Assembly (NCBI GenBank): GCA_000004695.1
Contig: CM000153.2
Coordinates: 2,144,001 to 2,208,000, forward strand
Source: Dictyostelium discoideum
Taxonomy: Eukaryota
DNA: 64,000 nucleotides
Direction: 5' to 3'
Of the stretch, positions 1 to 63,051 are shown piece after piece. Within the stretch, counting starts at the first letter, position 1. Every line of letters starts with the position of its first letter. The notes under the pieces are model-generated. The model searched no databases and was not told the origin of the DNA. It saw only the letters and a list, made by a program, of their open reading frames with translations. The position numbers and the translations under genes were made by a program.

Positions 1-621
1 CAACATCGTCAGTATTAATTGTAACATGAAGTAGTGATTTACCTTCATCAAATCTTTGTGGTTGTTTCTTTGTAACTGTTAATGTTAAAACACCACCACT
101 GCCATCTAAAGATAATGTGGCGTTATTATTTGACGAGGATGATGATGTTATAGGTGAGGTAATTTCATCATTTTCATCATCATCAGAGCCTTCATTCCAT
201 AATTCCATAACAGTATTTAATTCATTTTCTAAACGTGCAAATAAACCCATAACCAATCCACCAATTGGTACAATATGTAATGATTTTTCACTTTTAGCAT
301 CTTCTAATCTTTCCATCTCTGCTAAATAATCTAAATCTGATACCATATCCTCTAAATAACCCATTGCAATTGTATCAATAGATGGTTTTGAACGATCTCT
401 AATAAATTGTTTAACTTTTTCTGCTGAATATTCTACTAATCCAAATTGGTCACATAATATAATATGACATTTCTTTATAAAATCATGAATTACTGGATAA
501 ATTTCTTTCTTTAATTCTTTAATTAATGGTATTGGTGAACTTATAAATCTATTTGATAATGTTAAACAATTTGGTTGTTCTATATTATTATTATTATTTA
601 GACTATCATTATTATTATTAC

Positions 622-697
<76 letters not shown>

Positions 698-3115
698 TGA
701 AGAATCAGCAGCAGCAGAAGTAACAGATGCAATCATTTCTTGTTTTGGTGATAATTTTGAAGTTTCAGAAACTGTGACAGGTAATGATGCAGAAGTAATT
801 GGTAATGATGCAGATAATGAACTATCTGGTGACATAATTTGAGCACTACTATGTAAAATTGGAATTTCTTTAGCAGGTGATCTTGGTATACCAACTATTG
901 GACTACTACTAATACTATTACTACCACTACGATTTAATTTATTATCTTTAGTATCTTTATTATTACCATTATTATTATTAATAATTGAAATTGAATCACT
1001 ACTTTTAGTAATTATTGAAGAATCACTACTCTTAGTATCATTTTGTTGTGATTGTTGTTGTTGTTTTTCTAATAATTGTTGTTTTTCATCAATTGTTATA
1101 ATTTCAATTAATTGTTCTTGTGGATCTAAAATTTTTTGGACCAACATTAAATTTGAGAAAACATCATTAATGTTATTTGGAGGTTGTTCAATATAATTTT
1201 CAGGTACAGCAGAAAAGTTGTAACCACGTTCTAATAGGAAATCATTGCAACGATTTTCAATTCTTTTTAACCACCATTCTGTTATTTGTTCTTTTTTAAT
1301 ACCATTTAAGAATTGTTTCTTCTCGATACCTAATCGATCAAGTGCAATTTCACATTCTTGAAGGACCAATTTAGTTTTTGATTTAGCAACTTGTAAATAG
1401 GAGCTACTGTGAAGTTCACTTAGAGTTGAATCATATCTTGGTATATACATAAATCTCATATCCAATTGTTGGCAAAGGTAATTATCAATTTGTAGGTCAA
1501 TTTGTTTCTCAAGATCTTTGAAAATTGGGTGATCAGGATTTGAATTTATAGATTGTAAACAAGTATGCATAGTTTTAATTCTATCTAAATTAATTAGATT
1601 TGAATTTTGTGCAACCGAATGAATGAAATCTAAATCAATACCTAAATTCTCCATAGATGACATAATGATATGTTTTGATTCATCAATGATTTGTTGAAAG
1701 AATTTCTCAGAGGGATGATTAATCAATTTGTCAGTTAACTTTATATCTTTTAAAGCTTCCATAGTGGATTTATTCAATACTAGTACATCCTCAATTCCAA
1801 CCAATACCTCTTCACTCTCTTCACTTGAAAAGTAAACTTTAATATAATAATCTTCTCTCTCACCTGTATAACGTGCAAATTGTGCCTTTGGTCTAAAATT
1901 ATTAAATGTACTTGGACACATTATTTTTTCAACATGTTCTTCCAATGTTATTAAACTTTTATGATTAATTGTTGGTGTTGTTATATTATTGTTATTATTA
2001 GTAGAGTTGTTATGATTATTATTGACTGTATTATTTGAATTTGTTGAAGTTGATGATGAATTTGAATGTGTTGAAATTCTGGAATGTGATGGAGATAATA
2101 ATAAATTTGAGAGATTATTACAACTAACACTACCATGTTGGTGAATATGTTCAGAGACACTATGACTGTGTGTTGATTTAAATCCACCTATAAATTGTTT
2201 TTTATGTATATTTTGTTGATTAAATTGGTTGAATCTAACTATAACTAAATCACCTTTTTTAATTTTATCACAACCTCTTAATAATGATGCATAACGTCTA
2301 ACTGATTTTGCAATTTGATTAACATCATCAAGTGCACTCCAATTTATAATATTCATTAATAATCCTGATCTAGTTGTTGATATATTTGGAAGTGGCATAT
2401 TACCCCCACCTCCTCCTCCCCCTCCTCCTCCACCACCACCACTTATATTGTTACTATTATTACTATTTAAAAAACCACCACTACCACTATTACTACCATT
2501 ACTACTTAAAAATGAAGATGATGTTGATGCTGATATTGGATGAGTTATACTACCAGTACTGTCTCTATAATTGTTGTTTTGTGGCTCATTTGATTTTATA
2601 ATCGATGCCAAGGATGAAAATGATAATGCTGAAAGTGATGCGTGAGATTGTGATGGTGATAATAATGGCTGAGATGATGCTGATGATGTTGATGATGTTG
2701 ATGTTGTTGATGATTGTAATTGTTGTTGTTGTTGTTGTTGTTGTGTTTGTTGTTGCTGCTGTGATGGTGAAATATCTATATCGCTTTCTTTATCTTTATC
2801 TTTTTCTTTATTATCTTTATTATCTTTTTCATCTAATCTTGCCATATCATAATCTCTTGAAATTTTATTTAAAAGGTCATCACAAGGTATTAACCCTACA
2901 ACTGCTGAATCTGGGTCAACTACATAAAAAGTTAAATGATTAATTAATAATTGTGTCACATCAGACATCATTTTTCTTTTATCCATTGATATGAAATCCA
3001 ATGTCTTTTGAAAGAATTGAAATAGTCCAATATAATGTTGTGCTCTTGCTTCTGTAAAAAATTCTTTACTTAATGATTTAACCAATCTTTCATGAAAAAT
3101 TTGTGCTATTGACAT
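1..3115 (-). CDS. 5'-complete, 3'-truncated gene (ATG at 3115-3113, reads off the window start). Encodes a large low-complexity (poly-N, poly-Q, poly-G, Ser-rich) protein of unknown function; N-terminus MSIAQIFHERLVKSL.
   Basis: Continuous minus-strand reading frame with Dictyostelium codon bias from 3115 to position 1 without stops (translated manually). The (AAT)n and (CAA)n tracts at 600-700 and 2640-2760 are in frame. The ORF is absent from the ORF track only because it lacks a stop inside the window. No confident domain recognised. Confidence 0.6.
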
Positions 3116-3272
3116 TAATTTAACTGTATGTAAATGACAAAATGCATTTATACATGGTAAAATTTGATCCTTTTTTTTTAAAAAAAATAAAAATAAAAAA
3201 ATAAAAAAATAAAAAAAAATATAAAAATAGAAAAATAAAAATAGAATTAAAAAATATTAATATGAAAAGTCA

Positions 3273-3308
<36 letters not shown>

Positions 3309-3368
3309 CTGAAAGTGTGTGAGGTTTATTTTTATTTTTATTTTTTTTTTTTTTATTATTGCAAGATA

Positions 3369-3590
3369 TTATTTTTCATAATTACTTACTTGAAAAATAC
3401 AATAAACATTTGTGGCGGCACTATATGTTGATTTTAATGTATTATTATTTCTTGAAGATTTTGCTAATGCTTTTTCCTGTGCTTTTAATGTTTTTGATAT
3501 TTTAGGTACATTTAATGTATCTAAATATCTAAAACATTCAGTGACATTAGCAATGAATGCTTTCTCTAAACTGAATGCTTTTGAGCTCAT
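3369..3590 (-). CDS. Small ORF (73 aa, MSSKAFSLEKAFIANVTECFRYLDTLNVPKISKTLKAQEKALAKSS...), candidate small protein
   Basis: Non-repetitive ORF with typical Dictyostelium codon choices (TTA, AAA, GCA, TCA, AGA). The overlapping plus-strand ORF 3412-3672 is Phe/Leu-rich from T-rich codons and less gene-like. A GTAAGT hexamer sits just before the stop, but no convincing downstream exon was found. Confidence 0.35.
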   Translation of the reverse strand: MSSKAFSLEKAFIANVTECFRYLDTLNVPKISKTLKAQEKALAKSSRNNNTLKSTYSAATNVYCIFQVSNYEK

Positions 3591-14023: not shown

Positions 14024-14060
<37 letters not shown>

Positions 14061-14150
14061 CCAACGCAAACCCATGGGGGGATATGAAGTTTTTTTTTTT
14101 TTTTTTTTATTTTATTTCTTATAATTTTTTTATTTAATTATTATTATTAT

Positions 14151-14187
<37 letters not shown>

Positions 14188-15160
14188 CATCTTTAACATA
14201 TTTATTATTTCCAAATTTATTTATTCAAAATTTATTTTAAATGTAATTTATAAGCCAATCTAATTAATATAAATCATAATTGTTTTACCCTTATATTAAA
14301 AAAAAAAGCAAAGGAGAGATTTTTTTTTTTTATTTTTTTTTTTTTTTTAATAATTAATTTTATTTTCTAAAATTTTTTTTTTTTTTTTTTTTTTATTTTT
14401 TTTGACACTTTTAGTGCACCCCATTTATCCTTTAACGATAATTGTATGTATTTGTATTGTTTTTCATCACAGTCCTTTTTTATTTTTAAAAAAAAAAATA
14501 TAAAAAAAAAAAAGGTTAAAAAAAAAAAAAAAATATCAAATCACACTTAACAACATATAAATATAATTTATTTCCTGTTTGAACTTGTAGTTTATTATTA
14601 TAATTTGGGGTTATGTGAATAATATACAAAATTATATATTTTCAAATTTTTTTTTTTTCTATTTTTTTTTTTTTTTTTTTTTTTTTTTTCTGTTTTTTAT
14701 TTTTTTTTATTTTTGGTGTGTACAATTACTATTTTTTTTAAATAACTTTTTTTTTCTTATATTTTTTTATTTTTTTATTTATTTTTTTTTTCAACATTTC
14801 CTTAATTGAAATCGTAAAATTAATACTAACCTTGTTTCTTTCTTTTTTTTCTTTATTTTTTTTTAGAAATTATTTTATAGTTTTTATAACTAAAAAAAAC
14901 GATAATCGGCATTTAAAGAAAAAAAAAAAAAAAAAAAAACTATATGAATTCTAAAATCAAATAACACTAAAAAAATAAGTTTCAATCTATTTATTCAAAG
15001 TTCAAAATTCAAACTAATAACTATCGGTTTGAAATCATAAAAAAAATCCAATAATAATAATATTAAAAATAATAAAAATAATAAATAACAATAAAAATAA
15101 AAGATAAATAATATATAATCAAATAATATCTCTTATTAAAAAAACAAAACGAAACAAAAA

Positions 15161-15956
15161 ATGTCATTCACAACAAATAAAAAACTAAAAACAATAATGT
15201 TTGGATTTAAAACAACAAAAAATAAAAAAAGAGTTAGATTATTAGTGGTAGCTATTGGGGTAATGATATTTTTTATGTGCTTATCAAATTTTTCGTCTAT
15301 TCAATCAAGACAATCCTCATCAACTGATACACCACTTCAACAAAATGGTAAACACCAAGTCATAAGAGTTTTGGAAACTCAACCAAGTATAAATATAAAT
15401 AATAGTGAAAATAATATAAATAATGAAAATATAAATAATAATCAAAATAATAATCCAAATAATAATATGGACAATAATAATAAAAATAATAATAAAAATA
15501 ATAATATAGATAATAATAACAATAAAAATAATAATAATAATGATAATATTGATAATAATATAAATAATAATAATAATAATAATAACAATAATAATAATAT
15601 AAATAACAATAATAATATAAATAATAATAATAATATAGATAATACAGATAATAATATAAATAATAATATAAATAATAATAATATAAATATTAATAATAAT
15701 AATAAACCTAGTTATAAAAAACCAGAAAAGAAACCACCATTATCATCTAGTCAAATTTTTTTTAATTCTTTACCACCACATATTCAAAAACAAGTAGTTA
15801 TTAGAGAGAAATCGAATTATGCACAAGCATTACAATACGATTCATATGGTATCGTACCAGCAAAGGATTTTTTCGATGGCTTAGATGCTGTTTTCGAAAC
15901 AAAACCTAATTATAAAATTTCAACAGTTAGAAAATTATTTAATATCGAAAATTTAA

Positions 15957-16024
<68 letters not shown>

Positions 16025-34480: not shown

Positions 34481-34580
34481 NNNNNNNNNNNNNNNNNNNN
34501 NNNNNNNNNNNNNNNNNNNNNNNNNNNNNNNNNNNNNNNNNNNNNNNNNNNNNNNNNNNNNNNNNNNNNNNNNNNNNNNN
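34481..34580. other. Assembly gap (100 N)
   Basis: Run of exactly 100 n characters. Confidence 0.99.
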
Positions 34581-49096: not shown

Positions 49097-49635
49097 TGTG
49101 TGGCGATTTATATTTTGTGGTTTTTTTATTTTTTTTTTAATTGGTTGTAATGATGATGTTATTTAATTCGAATTGGGTCAATGATATTTTTAAATTTAAA
49201 TTATTTTCTTTTTAAATTTATATTATTTTTATAACCTTTTTAACTATTATTTATATTTATATTATTAAATTTAATTTTAAATTTTTTTTGTTTTTTTTTT
49301 TTTTTTATAATTATTGAGGTTCAATTTATATGATAATATGTTTTGAAAACAAAAAAAAAAAAATAAAAAAAAATTTATTAACCTAAATTTTAAAAAAAAA
49401 ATAAAAAAATAAATAAATAATTAATTTAATAATTAGTACTGGTTTTTTTTTATTTTTTATTGTTTGAACTACAATGAATGTAAGACGATATTTGAAAAAA
49501 AAAAAAAAAAAAATAAAAAAAATAAAAATTTTTACTTTAAAAAGTGATGGTTTTGGAAAATAAAAATAAAAAAAAAATAAAAATTGAAAAAAAAATTTGA
49601 ACTTACTTTGTACAAGACCGATGATTGTTTAATAG

Positions 49636-49701
<66 letters not shown>

Positions 49702-50158
49702 GTTGTTTTTTTTTTTTCTCTCTCTCTTTTTAAATTATTTCTATACCAAAAAAAAAAAAAAAAAAAAAAGAATAAAAAAATAAAAAAAAGAATAAAAATT
49801 AAAAATATAAAATTATAAAATTTTTTTTTTTTTTTTTCTAATATAAAAATAAAAATAAATGTTAGTAAGAGAATCTTTTTTTTTTTTTTTAAAGAAAAAA
49901 AAAATAAATGAATGAAAACAGAAAAAATAATAATAGGTTAAAAAGAAAAATTTTAAAAGAAAAAAAAAAAAAAAAAAAAAAAAATACAATTATGTGATTT
50001 TAAACTACCAAACAAAGTTTAATTTTTCCAAATTAGGTATTTTTGATAGTAATAAATTTTTAAACGTTATTGATATTTTTTAAAATACACTAAACAAAAT
50101 AAATAAAAAAAATTATAAAAAAAAAAAAATAAATAATTATTGAATGTTAATAGAAAAA

Positions 50159-50190
<32 letters not shown>

Positions 50191-50347
50191 AAAAAAACCA
50201 CCCACAATTATGATAGAAGTCTTCGAATAATTACATGTGAAAAACAATGAAACTGTGAATTAAAATATTTTATTATTTTTTTTTTTTTTAAAGTGCAAAA
50301 AAGATGACGATAAACTATAAAGCAATATAATTGTGAGTGAAGAAGAG

Positions 50348-50388
<41 letters not shown>

Positions 50389-51233
50389 ATATCATTAAGA
50401 AATGGAAAATAATAAATAAACTAATTGAAAAAATCACGCAAAACAATTACAAAATTATGTTTTTCTGTATTTCCGATACAATAGATAAAGACAAAAAAAA
50501 AAAAAAAACATAAAAAAAACGAGCCATACATTCATATGGTAACACACAAACACAAAACTATGCTTTATTCGTCATGACAAACATGTTTTTTACAATCTAT
50601 TGACAAATATAGGTGGTTTAAAAAAATTATGGGTTTGTAATAATGAATTTTTTATGTGTAAAAGGGATTAAAAAATAAATTGAATTCTGACTTTGTATCT
50701 AATAGAAAACAAAGATAATTTTTTTTTTTTTTTTTTTTTTTCAATGATGAGTGGTATATAGTATGTGGGTGTGTGTGAGTGCGTGTGTGTGTAAATATAA
50801 ATATAGGGTAAATTTGAAATTTTATATGTAAGCTTTTTATCCAAACGTGGAAGCTATTTTTTTTTCTTTTTTTTTTTTCTTATTTTAATGGAATTGTATT
50901 TTAAAGTTTCTAATCTTTTAAAAAGAAAAAAAAACATTTTCCCCACTCAAATGAATGGTATGAAATTATTTTTAAAAATGATTTGAAAATGTGATTTATA
51001 AATATGTTATTTTATAATTATGTTCAAATTCCATTTGTGTTGTTGAATGATTATATTTGTAAAAAAAGAAATAATAAAATAAAATAAGATGAATAAATAA
51101 AAAAAAATAAAAAATATAAAAATATAAAAAAAAAAATAAATAAAAAAAGCTAAAAATAAGATGAATAAAAAAAAAAAAAAAACTATTATCATATACTTTT
51201 TAAAATTTTATTATTATTTATTATTATTATTAC

Positions 51234-51333
<100 letters not shown>

Positions 51334-51411
51334 AAATTTTTTATTATAAATTTAATAACTATATTAATAAAAACTATAATGATTATAAAAACTATAATAT
51401 TTAGATTTTTT

Positions 51412-51511
51412 NNNNNNNNNNNNNNNNNNNNNNNNNNNNNNNNNNNNNNNNNNNNNNNNNNNNNNNNNNNNNNNNNNNNNNNNNNNNNNNNNNNNNNNNN
51501 NNNNNNNNNNN
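51412..51511. other. Assembly gap (100 N)
   Basis: Run of 100 n characters; flanked by an (ATT)n repeat at 51211-51340. Confidence 0.99.
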
Positions 51512-51762
51512 GTTTGATTATGGTGATGATGGTGACCACCAAATTAAATGAAATAAATATTACTTTTTTAATTTAATTAAAAAACAAGTAATAAAAAAAA
51601 AAAAAATACATATATATATAAAAATAAAAATAAAAAAAAAAAAAAAATAAAAAAGTTTGTCTTGGTGCACCTTTTTATATAAATATTTTATTTATTATAT
51701 TACATATAAAATTATAATATGTATTGGCACTAATTAAATGAACAAACTCTTTGAAGATGAAG

Positions 51763-51814
<52 letters not shown>

Positions 51815-51939
51815 CCGACTTACTGAGTCCGGGCATAATAAAAATAGAAAAAAAAAAAAAAAAAAAAAAAAAACAAAAAAAACAATTATAATTTCACTAA
51901 AACAATGTGAGAGGGTGTATGTGTGAGAATATCATATAT

Positions 51940-52260
51940 GGGGTTGTGGTGTGTGTCTATCTGTGTGTGTGTGTGTGTGTGATGAATTAATTAAACACGC
52001 ACGGAGAGACACACACACTTATATACATAAATTTTTATATATGTATAAATTTATATATATATATATATATATATATGTATAATAAATGTGATTCCATAAT
52101 TGTTGTTGTTATTAAATGTATATGTTTTTATCATTTATATACTATTTATGTATATATGCGATAGCCATACCACATTACTGGGTGGTGTGTGTGTGTTTGA
52201 AAGTGTGTTGAAATGTGTGGATGGGTGTAAATGTGTGGTGATGTGAATAGTGTTATATAT
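51940..52260. repeat. GT/TG-rich and (TA)n low-complexity block (gtgtgtgtgtgtgtgtg, (at)n, ggtggtgtgtgtgtgtttg)
   Basis: Direct reading; compositionally distinct from the surrounding A/T homopolymer background. Confidence 0.8.
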
Positions 52261-52631
52261 TTGCCTATATATTATTTCTTTTTATAACTTGTTTACCGCA
52301 CGCTCATTAAATAATATAAAAAAAAAAAAAAAAAAAAAAAATTTTTTTGGAACTGTTAAAAATATAACAAACAATAAGATGGTATTGATGATAATAATAG
52401 GAGTATTAAAAATTATTTTTTTATTTATCTATTTTATTATTTTAATAATTATTATCTTTTTTTTTTTTTTTTATTATTATTAATATTATTATTATTATTA
52501 ATATTATTATTATTTAGACATTAAAAAAATGGTTATTGGCGATTAACTGGCGGTAAAAGAAATCAAAAATTTAATTATTCGAAGATTATGAAACAAAACT
52601 ACTAATATTCAAACAAACAACATCATCAACT

Positions 52632-52687
<56 letters not shown>

Positions 52688-53050
52688 TATTTATAATAAT
52701 GTAGTAGTGTGTATTGTCATACCATTGGAATGGTAAAAATAAGAATAAAATAATTGTTAAACTAATAATAGACGATAAAAGTGTTTTTAGTGGAGCAAAA
52801 AAAATAATAAAAAAAAAAATAATAATAATAAAAAAAAAAAGAAAAGTAACGATATACATCTATTTAATTATCCCCATAAATAATTGAATTTAATGTTATC
52901 AAATATAATAAAGATAATTTAAACAAAGTGAAAAAGATTTTTTTTTTTTTTTTTTTTTTCTAAACTAATATAATTTGTCCATAGACCACACTTTAAAAAA
53001 AAAAAAGTGTGGGGAACTAAAAATAGAAACAAATATAATTATTATAATTA

Positions 53051-53129
<79 letters not shown>

Positions 53130-53712
53130 TTTTTATTATTATTATTATACAAGTTGTGAGATAGAAAATGTGGGATAAAAAATGAAATTGATTTAAGATC
53201 AAGATTGGCATTATGATAATAGTTTAAAATAATTAAAGAATAATAATGATGATAAACCCCAAAAGGGTTTTTTTTTTTTTTTTTCCTTTTTTTTTTCTTT
53301 TTTTTTTAACATGCTTTGGTATTGTTGGGAAAAATAAAAAAATTTATATGTATTTATAATAATTTGCTTACCTAAAACACCAATTTAAAACTGTTGAGGG
53401 TAGTTAATTAATAATTTATATGATAAAAAAGTAAATTAGTATTATTATTTTATTTTATTTTATTTTATTTTTTTTTTCTTTTTTTTTCTTTTTTTTTTTT
53501 TTCAGAATTGATTTAGTAAAATAATTTTAAAAGACATGAATTAAAATTTTGTGATCCACATGTTTCCTCTTACAAATTTCAAGGAGATAAAAGGGTGGAA
53601 CAAGAAAAAAAAATATATATATTAAAAAAAGGAATAAAAAATTTCTTTTTTTTTTTTTTTTAATCCTAATTATGTTGTTATATTTACTAGGGTTTTAATT
53701 TTATTGTGCCTA

Positions 53713-53764
<52 letters not shown>

Positions 53765-54606
53765 TTAAATTAAATATTTTTTATTTTAATTTTATTTCCT
53801 CTATTTTTGTTTTATTTATTTTATTTTATTTTATTTTTATTCAATTTTTTTAATTTTATTTTATTTTATTTTTTATTTTTGAAACTAGGAAGTGTATATA
53901 CAATGTAATAACACAAACAAGAAAATAAATCATAAAAATAAAATAAAATAAAATAAAAAATAAAATAAATATTTTTTCGATATTAACAAATGAACATGGT
54001 TTAAAAAATATTTTTTTTTTTTATTTTTTTATTTTTTATTTTTATTTTTTTTTTTTTTTGTGATCCAATGATATTATTAATTTATTAAAAAGGGTAAAAT
54101 AAGTTGTGGAATATTCCTTTTTCTTTGCTTTTTTTTTTTTTTTTTTTTTTTAAAAAAAATAAAAATAAAAATAAATTTTTAAAGAAAATGTATTTATAAA
54201 CCCAGTTGGATACACATACATATTTAGAATTAATTTGAATTATTTAAAATAAAAAAAAAAAAATAAAAATAAAAAAAAAAAAAAAATAAAAAAATAAAAT
54301 AAAAAAAAAAAAAAATAATAAAAAAAAATAAAAATAAATAAAAAAAAAACCAAACCAAACAATGAAATTATAATTTTTTTTTTTTAATAAAAAAAAAATT
54401 TTATATATAGATTTCCCATTCCCTAATTAATTCAAATAAGTTGTTATAATATTTTTGAAATATAATTATTATTATATGATTATATGTTGCTATTATTATT
54501 ATTATTTATTATTAAATATTATTATTTTTAAAAATCAAAGTTAAACTGTTTTTTTTTTTTTTTTTTTTTTGATTTTTTTAAATTCCATCTTCTTCGAAAA
54601 TTGGGT

Positions 54607-54637
<31 letters not shown>

Positions 54638-54964
54638 TATTTTTAAATAAATAAATTTTTTTTTTTTTTTTTTTAATTAAAAAAATATTTGATCTAATTA
54701 ATAACTGGCCATAAATACAATTATGGTATTTCCTCATAAAGTTGGATTTTTATTATTATTATTATTTTTAAAATTATTTTGATATTATTTTTAATAGAAT
54801 TATTTATTTTTTTTGAATACATACAAAAAAATTTAAAAAAAAAAACAAATTGTTTATTTGGTATTGATGATCAAAGTATTAACTTTTTCAAAAGTTGAAT
54901 AAAAATAAAAACAAATTTGTTTTGAGAAAAAAAATATTAAATAAAAATAAATAAAAAATAAAAG

Positions 54965-55036
<72 letters not shown>

Positions 55037-55833
55037 TTTGTTATTATTTTTATTATTTTTAATATTTTTTAATTATCTATAAAACCATTAATTTTGATTT
55101 GATGATTATGTGGGTTTTATATTAATTTTTTTTTTTTTTTTGAATTTTTTTTTTTTTCAGTTAGACCCCAGAAAAAAAAAAAAAATTTTATTTCTTTTTC
55201 CCCAATTTTTTTTTTTTTTTTTTTCCAAGGGGTTTGTTTGTGACATTTTTTAAAATTTTAATTATTTTTTGAAAAGGCATGCCCGTTTTTTTAATTTTTT
55301 ATTTTTTTTTATCAATGCATCTCTTTTTTTTTTTTTTTTTTAATAATTCACCATATGGTTCAATATTTTATTTTGTTTTTTTTTGTTTTTCCTATTTTTT
55401 TTTTTTTTTTAATTAATTGATTTATTGGTTGTGGTTATTAATTCGTTTAATTAAAATTTTTATTTTCATAATTTTTTTACAAAAACAATATTTGAAACAA
55501 TTAAACAAAAATAGTTATGTGAAAAAAAAAAAAAAAATATATTAATAAATAAAAAATTTTATATTGACAATTACCTTTAAGAGTTTGAGTTAATCTGTCT
55601 ATAAAAAAAGAAAAAAAAAATTTAAAAATTATTAGTTAGTATATCAAATAAAAAAATAAAAAGAATATATTTATTTGTATTAAAAAAGAAAAAAAAAAAA
55701 AAAAATATATAAAAAAAACAAAAAACGACTTGACTTTTTTTTTTTATTTTTTTTTTATAAAAAAATTCGATTGGGTATTTGAATCAATTAAAAAAATTTA
55801 TATGAAAAAAAAAAAAAAAAAAAAAAATGATAT

Positions 55834-55874
<41 letters not shown>

Positions 55875-56325
55875 ATAAAATATAAATTAATTTGAAATGG
55901 TATTAAAAATTTGTAAAACCTAAATATGTTTTTTTTTTATAATAAAAAAATTATACTTTCTATATATATAAGCCCATACATGAGGCAAAAAATCTTTGGT
56001 AATTTGAAAATATATATATGTATATAAAAAACCATTTTAATTAAAAGTAAGTTGGGAGTTAGGTTCATAATAATAATAAAACTTGTAATGAACCTTTACA
56101 AGTTAGAATATTTTTTTAAAAAAAAAAAAATAAAATAAAAAAAAAAAAAAAAACCCCAACCCCCATCAGATTCAAATTAACCTTATTAAGGAAAAACTCG
56201 ATTCTTAGCGCCTTTAATTTTGATTATTTGTTTTTATAATATATTTATATATTTGGTTATTATTTAAAATTTATTATTTTTAAAATATTTATTACATATA
56301 TTGAATTTTTTTCTTTTTTGGATAA

Positions 56326-56370
<45 letters not shown>

Positions 56371-56513
56371 AAAACCATATCCTTTGAATTTTTAAATAAT
56401 AAAAAATCCAAATAAATTAAATATTATTAATCCCTTAAAAGGTAAAGATATTTTTATTTTTAAAAAAATTTCCAAATCCCCAAAGAAAAAAAAAAAAAAA
56501 ATTTGTCAGTGCC

Positions 56514-56542
<29 letters not shown>

Positions 56543-56545
<3 letters not shown>

Positions 56546-56850
56546 AAAAAAAAAACAAATCAATGGTCAATATTAATATCAAAGTAGGAAAAATGGATAA
56601 TCAGGGTGTTATTTAAAGGAGTGGGACATGCGTGAAACTTCTTTTGAAAATTTTCATAAAAAAAAATTAAAAAATTAAAAAAAAAATTTTTTTTAGATAT
56701 TTTGGATAAAAAAAAAACAAAATTTAATTCGAATCAACAATTCCTCGCCGTTTCCAAAATAATCCTCAAATGTTGTTATGGCATCAATGCTAAAAAAAAA
56801 AAAAAAAACCTTTCGGAAAGTGTGGTATTAAAAAGATAAAAAAAAAAAAA
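56543..56850 (+). repeat. Copy 1 of a ~310 bp direct repeat, identical to 57587-57900; abuts the N gap at 56851
   Basis: Identical string in both copies, running from ...aaatttaaaaaaaaaacaaatcaatggtcaatattaatatcaaagtaggaaaaatggataatcagggtgttatttaaaggagtgggacatgcgtgaaac to tcctcgccgtttccaaaataatcctcaaatgttgttatggcatcaatgct...ggaaagtgtggtattaaaaagat. Confidence 0.9.
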
Positions 56851-56950
56851 NNNNNNNNNNNNNNNNNNNNNNNNNNNNNNNNNNNNNNNNNNNNNNNNNN
56901 NNNNNNNNNNNNNNNNNNNNNNNNNNNNNNNNNNNNNNNNNNNNNNNNNN
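56851..56950. other. Assembly gap (100 N)
   Basis: Run of 100 n characters. Confidence 0.99.
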
Positions 56951-57317
56951 ACCTGATTAAAAAAGCTTAATAAATGAAAAATATAAAAAAAAAAAAAAAA
57001 AATAAAAAAAATTAAATAAAAAAATTAATTAATTCTTACATTATTTGAAACTAGTTTAATATTTGATTTTTTTTCTTTTTCTTTTTTTTTTTCTTTTTTT
57101 TTTTTTCTAAACTTTTTTTTTTTTTATTGACCAAAAATATTAAATTTAATAGGAGATAGTTATAAATTATATTATAAAATCATTTTTAATTATTAAATAA
57201 TATAAATAAAGAATTGATTAAAAGAAAAAAAATATAAAATGAATTTATTTATGACAATCAATCGATTTAAATTATTAAGAAAAAAAATATCTTTACGATT
57301 GAGGTGGTATGAGAATT

Positions 57318-57395
57318 TAAAATAAAATAAAATAAAATAAAATAAAATAAAATAAAATAAAATAAAATAAAATAAAATAAAATAAAATAAAATAA
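57318..57395 (+). repeat. (AAAAT)n pentamer tandem repeat, about 15 units
   Basis: aaaataaaataaaataaaat... Confidence 0.9.
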
Positions 57396-57497
57396 AAAAA
57401 AAAAAAAAAAAATTTTTATTTGATTTGAAAAATAAAAAAATAAAAAAAATAAAAAAAAAATAAAAAAATAAAAATTGAAAAAACTTTTCGTTGGTAT

Positions 57498-57534
<37 letters not shown>

Positions 57535-57557
57535 GGGAATAGATTTGGGAAACACTT

Positions 57558-57586
<29 letters not shown>

Positions 57587-57591
<5 letters not shown>

Positions 57592-57900
57592 AAAAAAAAA
57601 ACAAATCAATGGTCAATATTAATATCAAAGTAGGAAAAATGGATAATCAGGGTGTTATTTAAAGGAGTGGGACATGCGTGAAACTTCTTTTGAAAATTTT
57701 CATAAAAAAAAATTAAAAAATTAAAAAAAAAATTTTTTTTAGATATTTTGGATAAAAAAAAAACAAAATTTAATTCGAATCAACAATTCCTCGCCGTTTC
57801 CAAAATAATCCTCAAATGTTGTTATGGCATCAATGCTAAAAAAAAAAAAAAAAACCTTTCGGAAAGTGTGGTATTAAAAAGATAAAAAAAAAAAAAAAAA
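57587..57900 (+). repeat. Copy 2 of the ~310 bp direct repeat (see 56543-56850)
   Basis: Base-for-base identical to copy 1 over the visible length. Confidence 0.9.
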
Positions 57901-57973
57901 ATTGAAAAATATCTTTGTTTTTGTTTTATTTTTTTTTTTTTTTAAAAAATTACAATTGGGAATTATAAATTTA

Positions 57974-58015
<42 letters not shown>

Positions 58016-59559
58016 AAGATTTATTTAACTATTATTCCTTTTATGCCATTATATTTTATAAGAAAAAAAAAAAAAAAAAGAAAGAAAAATTCTAAATTTA
58101 ACCGAGCACACATTTAGATTTTAATTTTTTTTTTTAACACAAAAATGTGTTGGTGATGTTTTTTCTTACGGTAATGGCGGTGTTTTGCCTTGACAGAAAT
58201 TCTTTTTTTTTTTTTTTCATAAAAATCAATAGATATTATTATTTTTATTTTACAAAAAAAACAAAGGCAAAATAAAAAAAAAAAATAATCATAAAAACAA
58301 TTTTAATCATTTTTTTTATTTCTTTACAAAACATATAAAATTAATTGAAATTATCTTTCCTTTATTCTCTCTTTCATTTCCATAGGGCATCTTTTAATCT
58401 GTAATAAAAATAGATATCATTAAAATTTTGCATTGAAAAGGTGATCTTTGACAAACGTAATGACACTTTTTGGATAAAAAAAATAAAAAAATAAAAAAAT
58501 AAAAAAATAAAAAAATAAAAAAAAAAAAAAAAAAAAGCTCGCTTTTTTAAAAGAAAAAAAGAAAAATATAAATTTATAAATAGCTCGCTTTTTTATAAGT
58601 AGAAAAATTAAATTATGAATAAAAAAAACAAACAAAAAAAAAAAAAAACAGTAACTGTTTGTGTCGTTTCAAATTTTTCTAAATATCTTTTCCTACTTCT
58701 TAAAAAAAAAACACATGGGGTTGTACAAAAATTTTCATTTAAATAAAGAGGTTGATACCATTGAGAATCATTATAATGAAAGAGGTTTTTTGTTTTATTT
58801 TTACTCGTGAAACCAATAAAAAAAAATAAGCATATAAAATTAATTTAATTAACAAGTTATTTAATTATTCAAAAATGATAAGAAAAAAAAATATTGGCAA
58901 TCACACCGATTACCAAACCACCTGCTCATAATTACCACAGGATTTTGATAATCTTAATTCATTAAAAAAAAAAAATAAAAAAAAAAAATAGTTTATTTTG
59001 CAAGGAATTATAAATAAAAACCAAGTATTGATATTTTAACCGATAAATTCCTAGGATGATTTTAATATTTTTTTTTTAAAAAAAAAAATGGAATTTAATT
59101 TTATTATTTTTTTTTTTGAGCGAGTATTGAATTTTAAAAATAAAATAGATGTTTAAATTATGAAAAATGTTTTTTTTTTAAATTCAATTCTCACCCAAAA
59201 AAAAAAGTTATCATTTGATACTAAAAAAATTATGAGGCCGTGCGAATCCCTTTATTAATTACAAATTTTAATTATTATTATTCCCAACAAATAAATTTAA
59301 AATCCAAATAATATAATAATAATAATAATTAATTTTTGACAAAACAATTTAAAAATAATAATTTTCTAATTTTATCTATAATTTACTTGTAATTAATTAA
59401 CCTAATATTTTTATTAATTTTTAATCCACTTTTTTTTTTTAAATATAGATAAAATTAGATTAAAATAAAAGTGAAAAAATTAATTAAATATTGGGTAAAT
59501 TTACTCGATAGATTATCAAATATAAATTAAATACGAAACTTGGATTGAATCAGTTCAAT

Positions 59560-61260
59560 TGTTTATGGCCCTGTGAATGTTAAACAATATTTACCATCGA
59601 CAATATTCCAAAATGTATCAAATGGCCAAATAATTGTTTTGATGCCGCTTTTGATATACAACCTGTTAAAAATGTTGAATTGGTTGTAGTATTGGGTGGT
59701 ACAGTTAATATTATAACAAAGGATGCTCCATTTTATACATTTTGGAATAAGTATTTACTGTTTGCATTTGTAATTGATCAACATAAAATCTCCAATGCCG
59801 ATGAAAGATCTAAAGATACTACCAGTTTAACTTAAATATCATCTGCACCAACTTCATCATTATTTAAAATCGAATTATTTTAATAAATCCAAATAGTATC
59901 ACCTAATTATTAATTGTTTTTTTTCTTCTTAATAAATGATTTATAAGAGAAAAAAAGAAATTATTAATAATAATTATTATCATTTTTAAAATAAAATAAA
60001 TGATTGTGGAACGTAACCAACATTGAATGTATAATTGTTATTGAAAGCCTTGAGATTATCTGATGTAATCTTATGAAGTGTATTATTTCAATTTCAATAT
60101 GTATACCGTTAGACTTACAAACTTTAAACCAGAAAATTATCTGGTCCGAATATACAAAGTTTATTGGTTGGATTTAGTGGTATGAAAGTAACAGTTGTAA
60201 ATTACTCAACATTCATGGTTTGTGAAAAATTGGAACCACTGGAATGTATTCCATACCCATTTCACATTTGCTTATGAATGATTGAAATTGCATTCACTAT
60301 TTGAGTCTGTTTGAGTTGTTTAATATCCTCTTTGCCAGTGGTTGGTAAACGTTGAGCAGAATTGAATGGGAACATATCAATACCTGGTTAACCATTGTTT
60401 AGACCTGTTTCATTACCATTAAAAATGACATAACAACCACTGAAAGATATATAATTACATATATCTTAGGAAAAAGTGTAATTTGCATATCCTGCTAAAA
60501 CTGTGTATATATTTGGAATAATATATATGTTTCTAGTTGGAAGTTTTGGTGTTCCTATATTAATCAAAGATTAAAGAATGAATATAAATCGGTTGTATGA
60601 GTCAAATTATTGAGTATTGGAGTTGAGCAATATGATGAAGAATCTATTGTTAGTGAGACCAGATGTGGTGTAGTTTAAACTATCTTAATGTAGGAATTTG
60701 GTGGAACGTTTTTAATTGAATATTTACACCTGTGATTTCCTTTTGGATACATCTGCATTTAATTGTGTACGGTTAACACTTGGAAAACTAATTTCATTGA
60801 TATTACCATGTGTTGACCAAGAATACAATGCCTGAATCACTCAAGATTTGCTCAAACATTTTATCCATAAGTTGTATCTAATCTTAAGTTATTCATAACA
60901 ATGTATTTTTTAAGGTTTTACCAACTTAACAATTACCAAAAAGTGAATTACAATTTTTTTATAATTGTTTTTTTTCATCTATACAATACCAATAATCTCC
61001 ATTGGTAATCTTTTTTTGTTGTTTGAAGCACATTATCCATTCAGTCTTGTAATGATAATTAGGCACCTGGTATCATTTAACTAACTTTTCTACTACTATC
61101 CTTATTCTTATCTATCCATAATACTGATCCGATACTATTGGTTTGACAAGAAATTTAATTTTTGTCTGATTGTATTGTTTGATACAATAATTATCGTACT
61201 AAGCAATGATTAAAATTGTATTAACCATTTGAATCTGTTTGATTTGTTTATGTTTCACCA
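59560..61260 (-). pseudogene. Complex (non-low-complexity, ~65% AT) coding-like sequence with frequent stops and frameshifts in all frames. Candidate decayed gene or transposon fragment; the minus strand is the most protein-like.
   Basis: No ORF longer than 60 codons is listed on either strand across 1.7 kb, despite normal sequence complexity. Minus-strand conceptual translation gives protein-like patches interrupted by stops: SLINIGTPKLPTRNIYIIPNIYTVLAGYANYTFS * DICNYISFSGCYVIFNGNETGLNNG * PGIDMFPFNSAQRLPTTGKEDIKQLKQTQIVNAISIIHKQM * NGYGIHSSG... Another patch reads GIKTIIWPFDTFWNIVDGKYCLTFTGP *. Confidence 0.4.
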
Positions 61261-61666
61261 TTTCCACTGTTGATTTGAAATTTATTTATTTTTAAAAATA
61301 TCTATTATAAAATTATTTTAATATTTTAATTTATAGATTTAAAAGATATAATTATCTTTTTCATTTCTTTATTAAAAAATTAATTTTAATATCTAAATTA
61401 ATAAATTTATTAAATATTATCCAAATGAAAAAATAGTTTGGAAATCCTAAATAAAATTAAATTTAAATAATTCATTCATTTATTGTTAATTATTGTTTGC
61501 AATAATAAATAATATAAAATAATAAAATTAAGATTATTTAAAACAATAATAGGTATTCTTTTATTGATTATTTTTTTCTTTTCAGTTTCTTCTTAAAGAT
61601 TTTAAGATTGTTTTTTTTTTTTGTTGCTTTTTTTTTACATTTGTCGATTAAAATATTTAATATTAT

Positions 61667-63051
61667 TTATTGTTTGGTGGTTTGACATTCGTTGAAAATA
61701 GAATTTTTAAATACTTGAGACATGATACCTTGAACTTGTTCTATTGTGACCTTTGAACTATATAGAGGAATATATATAAATATAATAATTAATATTAATT
61801 ATTAAATGTTTACAAAAAAATATTAAAAAAAAAAAAAAAAAATAAGTTATTATGTTACATACCTATCTTTACTAACTTTTGAAAGTAAACTTTCTTCTTT
61901 CTTTTTATCTAAAATACTTGATCTTGAATGGCTGAGTTGAGTTTCAGCTTGTTCTAATTTTTCGCTAAGATCATTAATTTGACCTGTAATATAATCACGA
62001 TTCTATTTTTTAAAAAAGAAAAAAAAAAAAAAATAAAAAATAAAAAAATTAGGAACTATAATATAATAATAATGGTAACAAAGAATATTGATTTGAAAAT
62101 TTTTGATAATAGTTACACTGAAAATTGGTGATGAAGAAAGAGTATTAACCCAATATTTGTTCCAAAGTTTATCGAGTAATTGTTGATCTAAAGATGATTT
62201 GAAATAGGTAATCTCTAAAGAGTAATATTGTTTGCAATGTACACCAAAATCTTCAATCTTTGATAATGGAATTGATTGATATTCTGATGGACCTTCATTA
62301 GGTGGTTTATAACCTTGTGGATATGTTCTAAATGCACCAATTTCAACTTTACCTGCTGAAACTGTACGTGTTGGATCAATCTAAATAATAAATATTATGA
62401 AATTAATTAAATAAATAAATAAATTATAAATTATAAATTATTAATTTTAAATACTTACAACAATACCTAACCATGGTTCAGAATATTGTTGATTTACAGA
62501 TTGAGTACCAACATCAATACCAGATAACCAACAACCATAACCTGGATGACTGTGATACCAACCTAAAGCATTTTCAAGTCTACCAGTTTGTTTAATTAAT
62601 TCAAGATATTCAACCATGTATTCATAAGCTTCAACTTGTGCGTTTACTCTTGTCTCTGTACCTTCAACTGGTAATGCAAATGAATCCATAATGATCATTG
62701 TATTATTTTCAACTTTACCCATTAACATACCCATAACTTCTAATTTACCACCAGATCTAGCATGCATAACCATCTTTAATAATGCAATTGCTGATATTTT
62801 AACATGTTTAAAATAATGAGGACTAATTTTTTTAAAAAAAAAAAAAAAAGAATATTGGTTAGAATTTAATTGAAGTAATAAATAAATAATGATAATTATT
62901 TTTATAGATACTCTTTTGACCATGGTTTTGATTGTAAAAATTGTTGATATTGTTGAGGATCATATTTAAATAATTGATCATGATCTATGGTTTGAATGTT
63001 ATTTTCAAGTTCAAAAGTTTTTAAAGCATCTGCTGCTCCATTTTTTGACAT
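61667..63051 (-). CDS. csn5: COP9 signalosome subunit 5 (CSN5/JAB1, JAMM/MPN+ metalloprotease); 5 exons: 63051-62912, 62822-62459, 62380-62117, 62002-61863, 61757-61667; ~332 aa
   Basis: Colinear with human COPS5. KPWSKD|[62 protein letters not shown] aligns with [68 protein letters not shown]. The JAMM motif [18 protein letters not shown] is present. [21 protein letters not shown] aligns with [43 protein letters not shown] aligns with [22 protein letters not shown]. The C-terminal IMSQVFKN aligns with LMSQVIKD. Donors are GTATCT, GTAAGT, GTAACT and GTATGT. Confidence 0.9.

Follow-up and report, generated by a model that had tools for sequence, protein, structure and literature searches.

Among the known systems close to the element considered here are bacterial adhesins and one structural protein of Dictyostelium. 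The B domains of SdrD-type adhesins are all-beta, immunoglobulin (Ig)-like modules that hold three Ca2+ ions each and form mechanically strong stalks (PMC6232131). Colossin A of Dictyostelium discoideum, a structural slug protein, carries hundreds of bacterial Cna_B repeats and is a candidate for horizontal transfer from bacteria (PMC3188802). We analyzed a 64,000-nucleotide stretch of D. discoideum chromosome 4 (contig CM000153.2, positions 2,144,001 to 2,208,000; hereafter the window), in which an island of complex sequence lies on the minus strand at ~61271-59530, immediately downstream of csn5. The island is very probably a nonfunctional relic, i.e., a unitary or fragmentary pseudogene, of a gene that encoded tandem ~105-amino acid (aa) SdrD_B-type repeats and had at least one short intron. 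SdrD_B belongs to one superfamily with Cna_B, SpaA, and CarboxypepD_reg; its members are calcium-binding domains with an all-beta, Ig/prealbumin-like fold that serve bacterial adhesins as "stalks."

The relic matches the family hidden Markov model (HMM) of the staphylococcal SdrD/SdrG B repeats (Pfam PF17210). Those repeats belong to bacterial, sortase-anchored, functional proteins, unlike the relic, which directly matches no solved structure; its best unit gave no match against PDB sequences, even at E ≤ 10. In the relic, the acidic, Asn-rich W-x-D-x-N-x-D-G segment is a plausible counterpart of one SdrD-type Ca2+ loop. Colossin A (colA, DDB_G0292696) is a different gene, with a dictyBase identifier unlike those at this locus (DDB_G0284575 and neighbours). 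The Pfam scan of the island gave SdrD_B and no Cna_B (PF05738) match, unlike colossin A as described, and no colossin was among the hits of an exhaustive phmmer search. By that search, the closest eukaryotic relatives are giant SdrD_B proteins of other dictyostelids, CYY_009125 of Polysphondylium violaceum and EP01133_P016635 of Synstelium polycarpum, which are built head to tail from the same ~105-aa unit (G-x-x-x-W-x-D-x-N-x-D-G ... T-T-D-x-N-G-K-Y ... L-x-x-G-D-Y-C-V ... V-D-G-K-Y-C-F-T-F ... N-x-G-F-V). These proteins have long open frames with 17 to 24 Pfam-significant units, whereas the relic has four to five units, ~27 stops, and at least seven frameshifts. In its stops, frameshifts, lack of constraint relative to the flanks, and lineage-specific deletions, the relic resembles ordinary decaying eukaryotic pseudogenes; it differs from them in its bacterial-type domain family and in having no identified intact parent in the same genome.

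SdrD_B-type repeat units in the island

A six-frame Pfam scan of the island returned a single family, SdrD_B, in a minus frame at 59903-59600. This match, at the last unit, scored 39.4 to 40.4 bits (E of 4e-10 to 8e-10; curated gathering cut-off, 29.7 bits) and ran across four in-frame stops. When the minus frames were read side by side, a motif series recurred every ~300 to 450 nucleotides (nt), in the order G-x-x-x-W-x-D-x-N-x-D-G; T-T-D-x-N-G-x-Y-x-F; P-P-x-x-Y / G-D-Y-C; V-D-G-K-Y-C-x-T-F; and N-x-G-F/Y-V. We read the island as the remains of four to five tandem SdrD_B-type units split by one putative intron relic. The features are as follows, with stops in the translations given as asterisks.

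61137..61271, minus strand: R0, partial (C-terminal half of a unit), NSGNGET*TNQTDSNG*YNFNHCLVR*LLYQTIQSDK
60930..61136, minus strand: R1, IGSVLWIDKNKDSSRKVS*MIPGA*LSLQD*MDNVLQTTKK..., then frameshifts
60640..60929, minus strand: R2, badly eroded, with a recognisable core RCKYSIKNVPPNSYIKIV*TTPH at 60731-60663
60001..60441, minus strand: R3, frameshifted, SGCYVIFNGNETGLNNG*PGIDMF ... TTQTDSNSECNFNH ... HKITSDNLKAFNNNYTFNVGYVPQS, including the peptide quoted in the first-pass annotation
59904..60000, minus strand: short AT-rich intron relic of ~100 nt, between R3 and R4
59530..59903, minus strand: R4, best preserved, GDTIWIY*NNSILNNDEVGADDI*VKLVVSLDLSSALEILC*SITNANSKYLFQNV*NGASFVIILTVPP..., frameshift, then NIVDGKYCLTFTGP*TIELIQSKF
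61205..61250: 46-nt direct repeat, copy 1, in R0, 87% identical to copy 2 (blastn self-comparison)
60277..60322: 46-nt direct repeat, copy 2, in R3 (blastn self-comparison)

To these units we compared a repeat-unit HMM of 104 positions, built from 50 units of intact proteins, and the P. violaceum protein CYY_009125. R4 scored 9 to 11.8 bits with the repeat HMM, and its VDGKYCLTFTGP*TIE pairs with VDGKYCFTFSGPLPID of CYY_009125. R1, which alone in Pfam reached 19.1 bits (SdrD_B, E of 1.6e-3, under the cut-off), matched positions 1 to 46 of the repeat HMM at 8.3 to 10.9 bits and is 45% identical to residues 957 to 985 of CYY_009125. At R0 the HMM unit is weak; by tblastn, residues 22 to 138 of CYY_009125 align there in one frame (61271-61008). 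Neither R2 nor R3 was detected by Pfam. R2 matched HMM positions 43 to 65 at 3.3 to 3.4 bits, in a raw frame as well as in a path stitched across frames, and R3 has a weak, negative-scoring HMM envelope and a tail 41% identical to residues 1966 to 1994 of CYY_009125. R3 is tied to R0 because both carry the 46-nt direct repeat, which encodes the T-x-Q-T-D-S-N-x-x-x-N-F-N-H of the two units, reading T-x-Q-T-D-S-N-G/S-x-x-N-F-N-H in R0. Protein-level self-comparison of the island showed no strong off-diagonal repeats besides these direct repeats and a 22-nt inverted repeat in R4.

The argument leans on two results, the collinearity of the tblastn matches and a test of the repeat HMM against shuffled sequence, which together point to a degenerate tandem-repeat gene. 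When the intact relatives were searched by tblastn against the full 64-kb window, five matches were obtained, with CYY_009125 only, and all five fell within the island, on the minus strand, and in collinear order (in one, SIGSVLWIDKNKDSSRKVS*MIPGA*LSL pairs with AIGQVSWLDKNNDGVRQETEFLPGVNLSV). Read raw, without any stitching, a single minus frame of the island scored 24.6 bits with four units of the repeat HMM; in 400 shuffles that preserved dinucleotides, the highest-scoring of the six frames reached 4.7 bits at most. Along the stitched path, the HMM placed five units where they had been inferred by reading, and Pfam found two SdrD_B stretches. We also scanned the whole window and 13 related loci in 900-nt chunks (4410 chunks), with reversed sequence as a control. 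Matches above the best reversed control all fell in the relic and on the expected strand, with the exception of one marginal match (8.3 versus 7.9) on the opposite strand in a retrotransposon region of another isolate, L005.

The first-pass annotation had taken the N.N.TG/NNG periodicity of the minus-strand translation as a hint of a beta-helix or secreted glycosidase-type protein. We reject this idea because the motif (FNGNETGLNNG, WIDKNKDS) maps to the start of an SdrD_B unit; the segment pairs with the W-x-D-x-N-x-D-G opening of units in intact relatives, e.g., WLDINNDGIRG. "Secreted" may still hold for the ancestral protein. The quoted translation itself (CYVIFNGNETGLNNG*PGIDMFPFNS...) was found as written, and the exon-like composition claimed for 59560-61260, an interval that the relic slightly exceeds at both ends, was borne out. 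The GC content of the island is 27.7%, versus 17% and 11% in its immediate flanks, 30% in the csn5 coding sequence, and 27 to 37% in intact open reading frames (ORFs) of the window. Runs of six or more A/T make up 2.5% of the island; the figure is 25% in intergenic DNA nearby and 0.6% in the csn5 coding sequence.

Several observations weigh against reading the island as an SdrD_B gene relic. R4 is the only unit that passes Pfam's curated threshold, and R2 and R3 are weakly recognisable. Single tblastn E-values are marginal (0.02 to 1), and lesion counts made along the stitched path are approximate. Limited searches turned up neither a close intact paralogue nor a parent gene in D. discoideum. 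Finally, the relic was not found at the syntenic site in seven other species, so that an old gene need not have died in situ.

Lesions and decay among isolates

The stitched path of ~550 codons contains ~27 stops in frame and changes frame at least seven times, figures that are approximate because the path was chosen by eye. Each of the six frames of the island contains 33 to 57 stops, the best single frame having 33. The first-pass remark that none of the frames is open for 60 codons was inexact: open stretches of 83 codons (plus strand) and of 69 and 63 codons (minus strand) are present, yet none is longer than expected by chance, since shuffles of the island sequence gave a longest open stretch of 70 ± 14 codons and 16% of them reached 83. 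The 83-codon stretch, and the SdrD_B-like words on the plus strand there, are partly due to an apparently inverted segment in R4, which is marked by the following repeat.

59604-59625 / 59728-59749: 22-nt inverted repeat inside R4, 95% complementary, marking a small inverted segment relative to the D. cf. discoideum locus L009

In a comparison by eye, this short segment (tcaaatggccaaataattg) seems to be inverted in the window lineage relative to L009.

We retrieved syntenic loci from nine assemblies, anchored on CSN5 orthologues. L005 (GCA_054859355.1) and L006 represent further isolates of D. discoideum; L004 and L009 (GCA_054859235.1) are from D. cf. discoideum. In an independent assembly, L007 (GCA_054883475.1), the 1701-bp island is identical base for base, although this assembly spans the 100-N gaps of the window and differs from the window elsewhere. 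Sequencing error is thereby excluded, and the stops are real. No gene was called over the island in the annotation of L007.

That the island is a live gene, its stops being sequencing or assembly errors or subject to unusual decoding, has next to no probability in our view. Its exon-like composition would fit a gene, and one annotation pipeline did call a 144-aa gene on the L009 version. Against this stand, besides the identity of L007, the presence of all stop-codon types and of frameshifts, the private stops and large deletions of every other strain, and the normal reading of the other genes in the window under standard stops. The L009 model, moreover, splices arbitrary pieces of the relic and has no Pfam match. 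Ciliate-style stop reassignment was considered separately and ruled out: other ORFs of the window are long under standard stops, and the island contains TAA, TGA, and frameshifts.

The same relic is present in L004, L005, L006, and L009, each with different deletions of 0.5 to 1 kb and its own stops. The interval 60535-59995 is missing from L006. In L004 the missing piece is roughly the ~1 kb that separates the copies of the 46-nt repeat, which is consistent with unequal recombination between these direct repeats. Conversely, L004, L005, and L006 retain additional relic sequence that the window has lost, which implies a larger ancestral sequence. When the corresponding intervals were scanned with Pfam, L004 gave an SdrD_B match under the cut-off (9.4e-5), and L009 and L006 gave weak or no matches. 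Since stops or frameshifts affect every unit, no foldable product can be expected, and no intact Ig-like fold is encoded.

Aligned pieces of the island are 65 to 90% identical between the window and L006 (length-weighted, ~73%), compared to ~80% for flanking intergenic DNA. The island is thus conserved no better than its flanks, and there is no purifying selection. This bears on the idea that the old coding sequence has become a functional noncoding element, such as a csn5 3′ untranslated region or read-through product, a long noncoding RNA, or a regulatory region. The island does begin ~400 bp past the csn5 stop on the same strand, and relic DNA can be exapted. We nevertheless regard this as very unlikely, as strains are no more alike in the island than in its flanks, pieces of 0.5 to 1 kb are freely deleted, and no Rfam match was found anywhere in the window.

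The spacer between R3 and R4 provides a further clue to the source. An AT-rich spacer at this boundary is common to the window, L004, L005, L006, and L009; adjacent units of intact relatives are separated by ~6 residues. In the window, an AG lies immediately 5′ of GDTIW, at the end of the spacer, and L009 retains a GTAAAT...AG pair within it. The spacer is best read as a dead intron, which would make the source a genuine dictyostelid gene rather than fresh bacterial DNA or a retrocopy.

Taken together, the island combines protein-family homology with disabling mutations, the two marks of a pseudogene. The first-pass suggestion of a candidate pseudogene therefore holds, with SdrD_B homology, the stops and frameshifts, recurrence of the lesions in an independent assembly, and decay that is polymorphic among strains. 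The ancestral product may have been a secreted or surface structural protein akin to the giant dictyostelid SdrD_B/colossin-type proteins. The relic itself would now do nothing, drifting neutrally toward an AT-rich intergenic composition and losing pieces by deletion, some of them presumably between its own direct repeats. Because every sampled lineage carries a disabled version, death of the gene probably predates the split of the sampled D. discoideum and D. cf. discoideum lineages.

Relatives and origin of the relic

A word-indexed homology search with the three minus frames concatenated gave nothing at E ≤ 1e-3. Eighteen repeat fragments, taken from five assemblies and combined into a profile, matched only ACTFIZ_000946, a gene model built over the relic itself in D. 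cf. discoideum (L009 12561-13352, GCA_054859235.1). This 144-aa stop-free model is the one described above, and it is probably a spurious annotation. A similarly implausible 148-aa model extends across 12162-20466 in L006.

With ACTFIZ_000946 as a stop-free, relic-derived query, the exhaustive phmmer search returned four proteins, each matched in 4 to 10 separate stretches. Two are the giant dictyostelid proteins, namely, CYY_009125 (KAF2069556.1; 3208 aa, partial, with 24 SdrD_B stretches and 1090 bits) and EP01133_P016635 (2804 aa, 17 SdrD_B stretches). The best-scoring intact relative is a 1015-aa SpaA/Cna_B/SdrD_B repeat protein, 44% identical over its best stretch, which is encoded at 499-3546 of a compact, 50%-GC, intron-less, prokaryotic-looking contig (L011; GCA_964405595.1, CAYOON010000002.1). 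The fourth is a 360-aa metagenome protein. The prokaryotic-looking context of the 1015-aa protein fits the proposed bacterial origin of these dictyostelid repeats.

We then considered the csn5-downstream site in other species. In D. citrinum, D. firmibasis, and D. dimigraforme, the relic was undetectable there by blastn, tblastn, and the repeat HMM, and in P. violaceum, T. lacteum, and A. subglobosum the repeat HMM found nothing at this site. D. purpureum was also negative, a result that is uninformative because its contig stops ~660 bp past csn5. Synteny upstream (CK2-beta, a RING-finger gene, and csn5) is kept out to P. violaceum, and no SdrD_B gene lies downstream of csn5 in the other species examined. 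The giant P. violaceum gene is accordingly not syntenic with the relic. At the equivalent position in D. citrinum there is an unrelated complex island of ~550 bp with 22 to 30% GC (L001 11700-12250 and L002 11600-12150), which has no detectable homology to the relic or a Pfam family, its only hit being a sub-threshold DUF4422 match (0.007).

This distribution raises the question of whether the gene died where it stood. A variant of the origin, which we hold possible but tentative, is that a fragment was copied or translocated as DNA, with its intron, from a colossin-like SdrD_B gene at another place in the genome into the intergenic DNA past csn5 and was dead on arrival in the D. discoideum lineage. 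Its absence from the csn5 locus of the six informative species would follow from such an event, as would the lack of an SdrD_B gene downstream of csn5 despite the conserved upstream synteny; nor can a start codon or a signal-peptide exon be recognised in the window copy. On the other hand, neither the word-indexed nor the exhaustive protein searches, which could have missed one, found a similar donor in D. discoideum, and the ancestral insert was larger than the window copy. Full erosion in sister species is also plausible, intergenic DNA being just ~67 to 80% identical between them.

A transposable element relic, the other half of the first-pass proposal, is a good deal less probable than that and indeed highly improbable. 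The setting would suit one: an island of complex sequence stands in AT-rich DNA poor in genes, it is present in some species and absent from others, and in L005 a retrotransposon-like ORF lies a few kb away. However, the six-frame Pfam scan contained no reverse transcriptase, integrase, transposase, or gag domain. There are no long terminal repeats, terminal inverted repeats, or target-site duplications, the flanks sharing low-complexity A/T matches only. No second copy occurs in the 64-kb window or, outside the syntenic site, in ~270 kb of related loci, and the internal repeats of the island are protein-domain repeats. The suggestion of a transposon ORF is thus unsupported.

The L005 ORF itself (14055-16013; 652 aa, with the retroviral-type aspartic protease domains gag-asp_proteas / Asp_protease_2) is confined to this isolate, where it follows the relic a few kb downstream, and is probably a strain-specific retrotransposon insertion.

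The locus and what the relic records

Exact protein look-ups of two intact ORFs of the window identified DDB_G0284575 and a glycyl-tRNA synthetase gene at this locus. The relic occupies the DNA 0.4 to 2.1 kb downstream of csn5, which was spliced by hand.

61667-63051, minus strand: csn5 (COP9 signalosome subunit 5), five exons, 332-aa JAB/MPN product
63051-62912, 62822-62459, 62380-62117, 62002-61863, and 61757-61667, minus strand: the csn5 exons

The closest database cluster to the 332-aa protein is Dictyostelium CSN5 (99% identical representative), which includes AX4 CSN5 (EAL65137.1). The window as a whole is extremely AT-rich (10 to 39% GC per kb), and the relic stands at the edge of a ~10-kb AT-rich, ORF-poor stretch (49.1 to 59.5 kb). 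This stretch (49100-59500; GC, 10 to 19%) has only low-complexity artefacts as ORFs, is unusually long for an intergenic region in the gene-dense Dictyostelium genome, and aligns to other isolates and species at just ~67 to 80% identity. Two 100-N assembly gaps fall within it (51412-51511 and 56851-56950); a third lies at 34481-34580. A 42-nt inverted repeat with 83% complementarity and a 25-nt loop lies close to the relic on its downstream side, at 59103-59211, and holds the sole G/C-bearing motif of the AT-rich DNA there (GAGCGAGTATTGAATTT / AAATTCAATTCTCACCC).

As a pseudogene in decay, from a domain family already described, the relic accounts for an exon-like island in a gene desert, removes a transposon candidate, and implies that gene models drawn on it, such as ACTFIZ_000946, are probably spurious. 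Its evolutionary value is modest: a bacterial-type SdrD_B repeat gene would once have lain, or landed, beside csn5 in the D. discoideum lineage, and its decay would have begun prior to the divergence of the sampled isolates. Deletions that differ from strain to strain exemplify erosion mediated by repeats; one of them has the 46-nt direct repeats at its ends.

A bolder reading, which we consider rather unlikely, is that the relic is the last D. discoideum trace of a distinct, horizontally acquired lineage of SdrD_B giant-repeat genes, separate from the Cna_B colossins and still intact in P. violaceum and Synstelium. If that were true, the relic would record, and roughly date, how a structural gene family derived from bacteria died out in the model species of group 4, and the deletion states of the isolates would form a natural time series of the breakup of a tandem-repeat gene by recombination between its own repeats.

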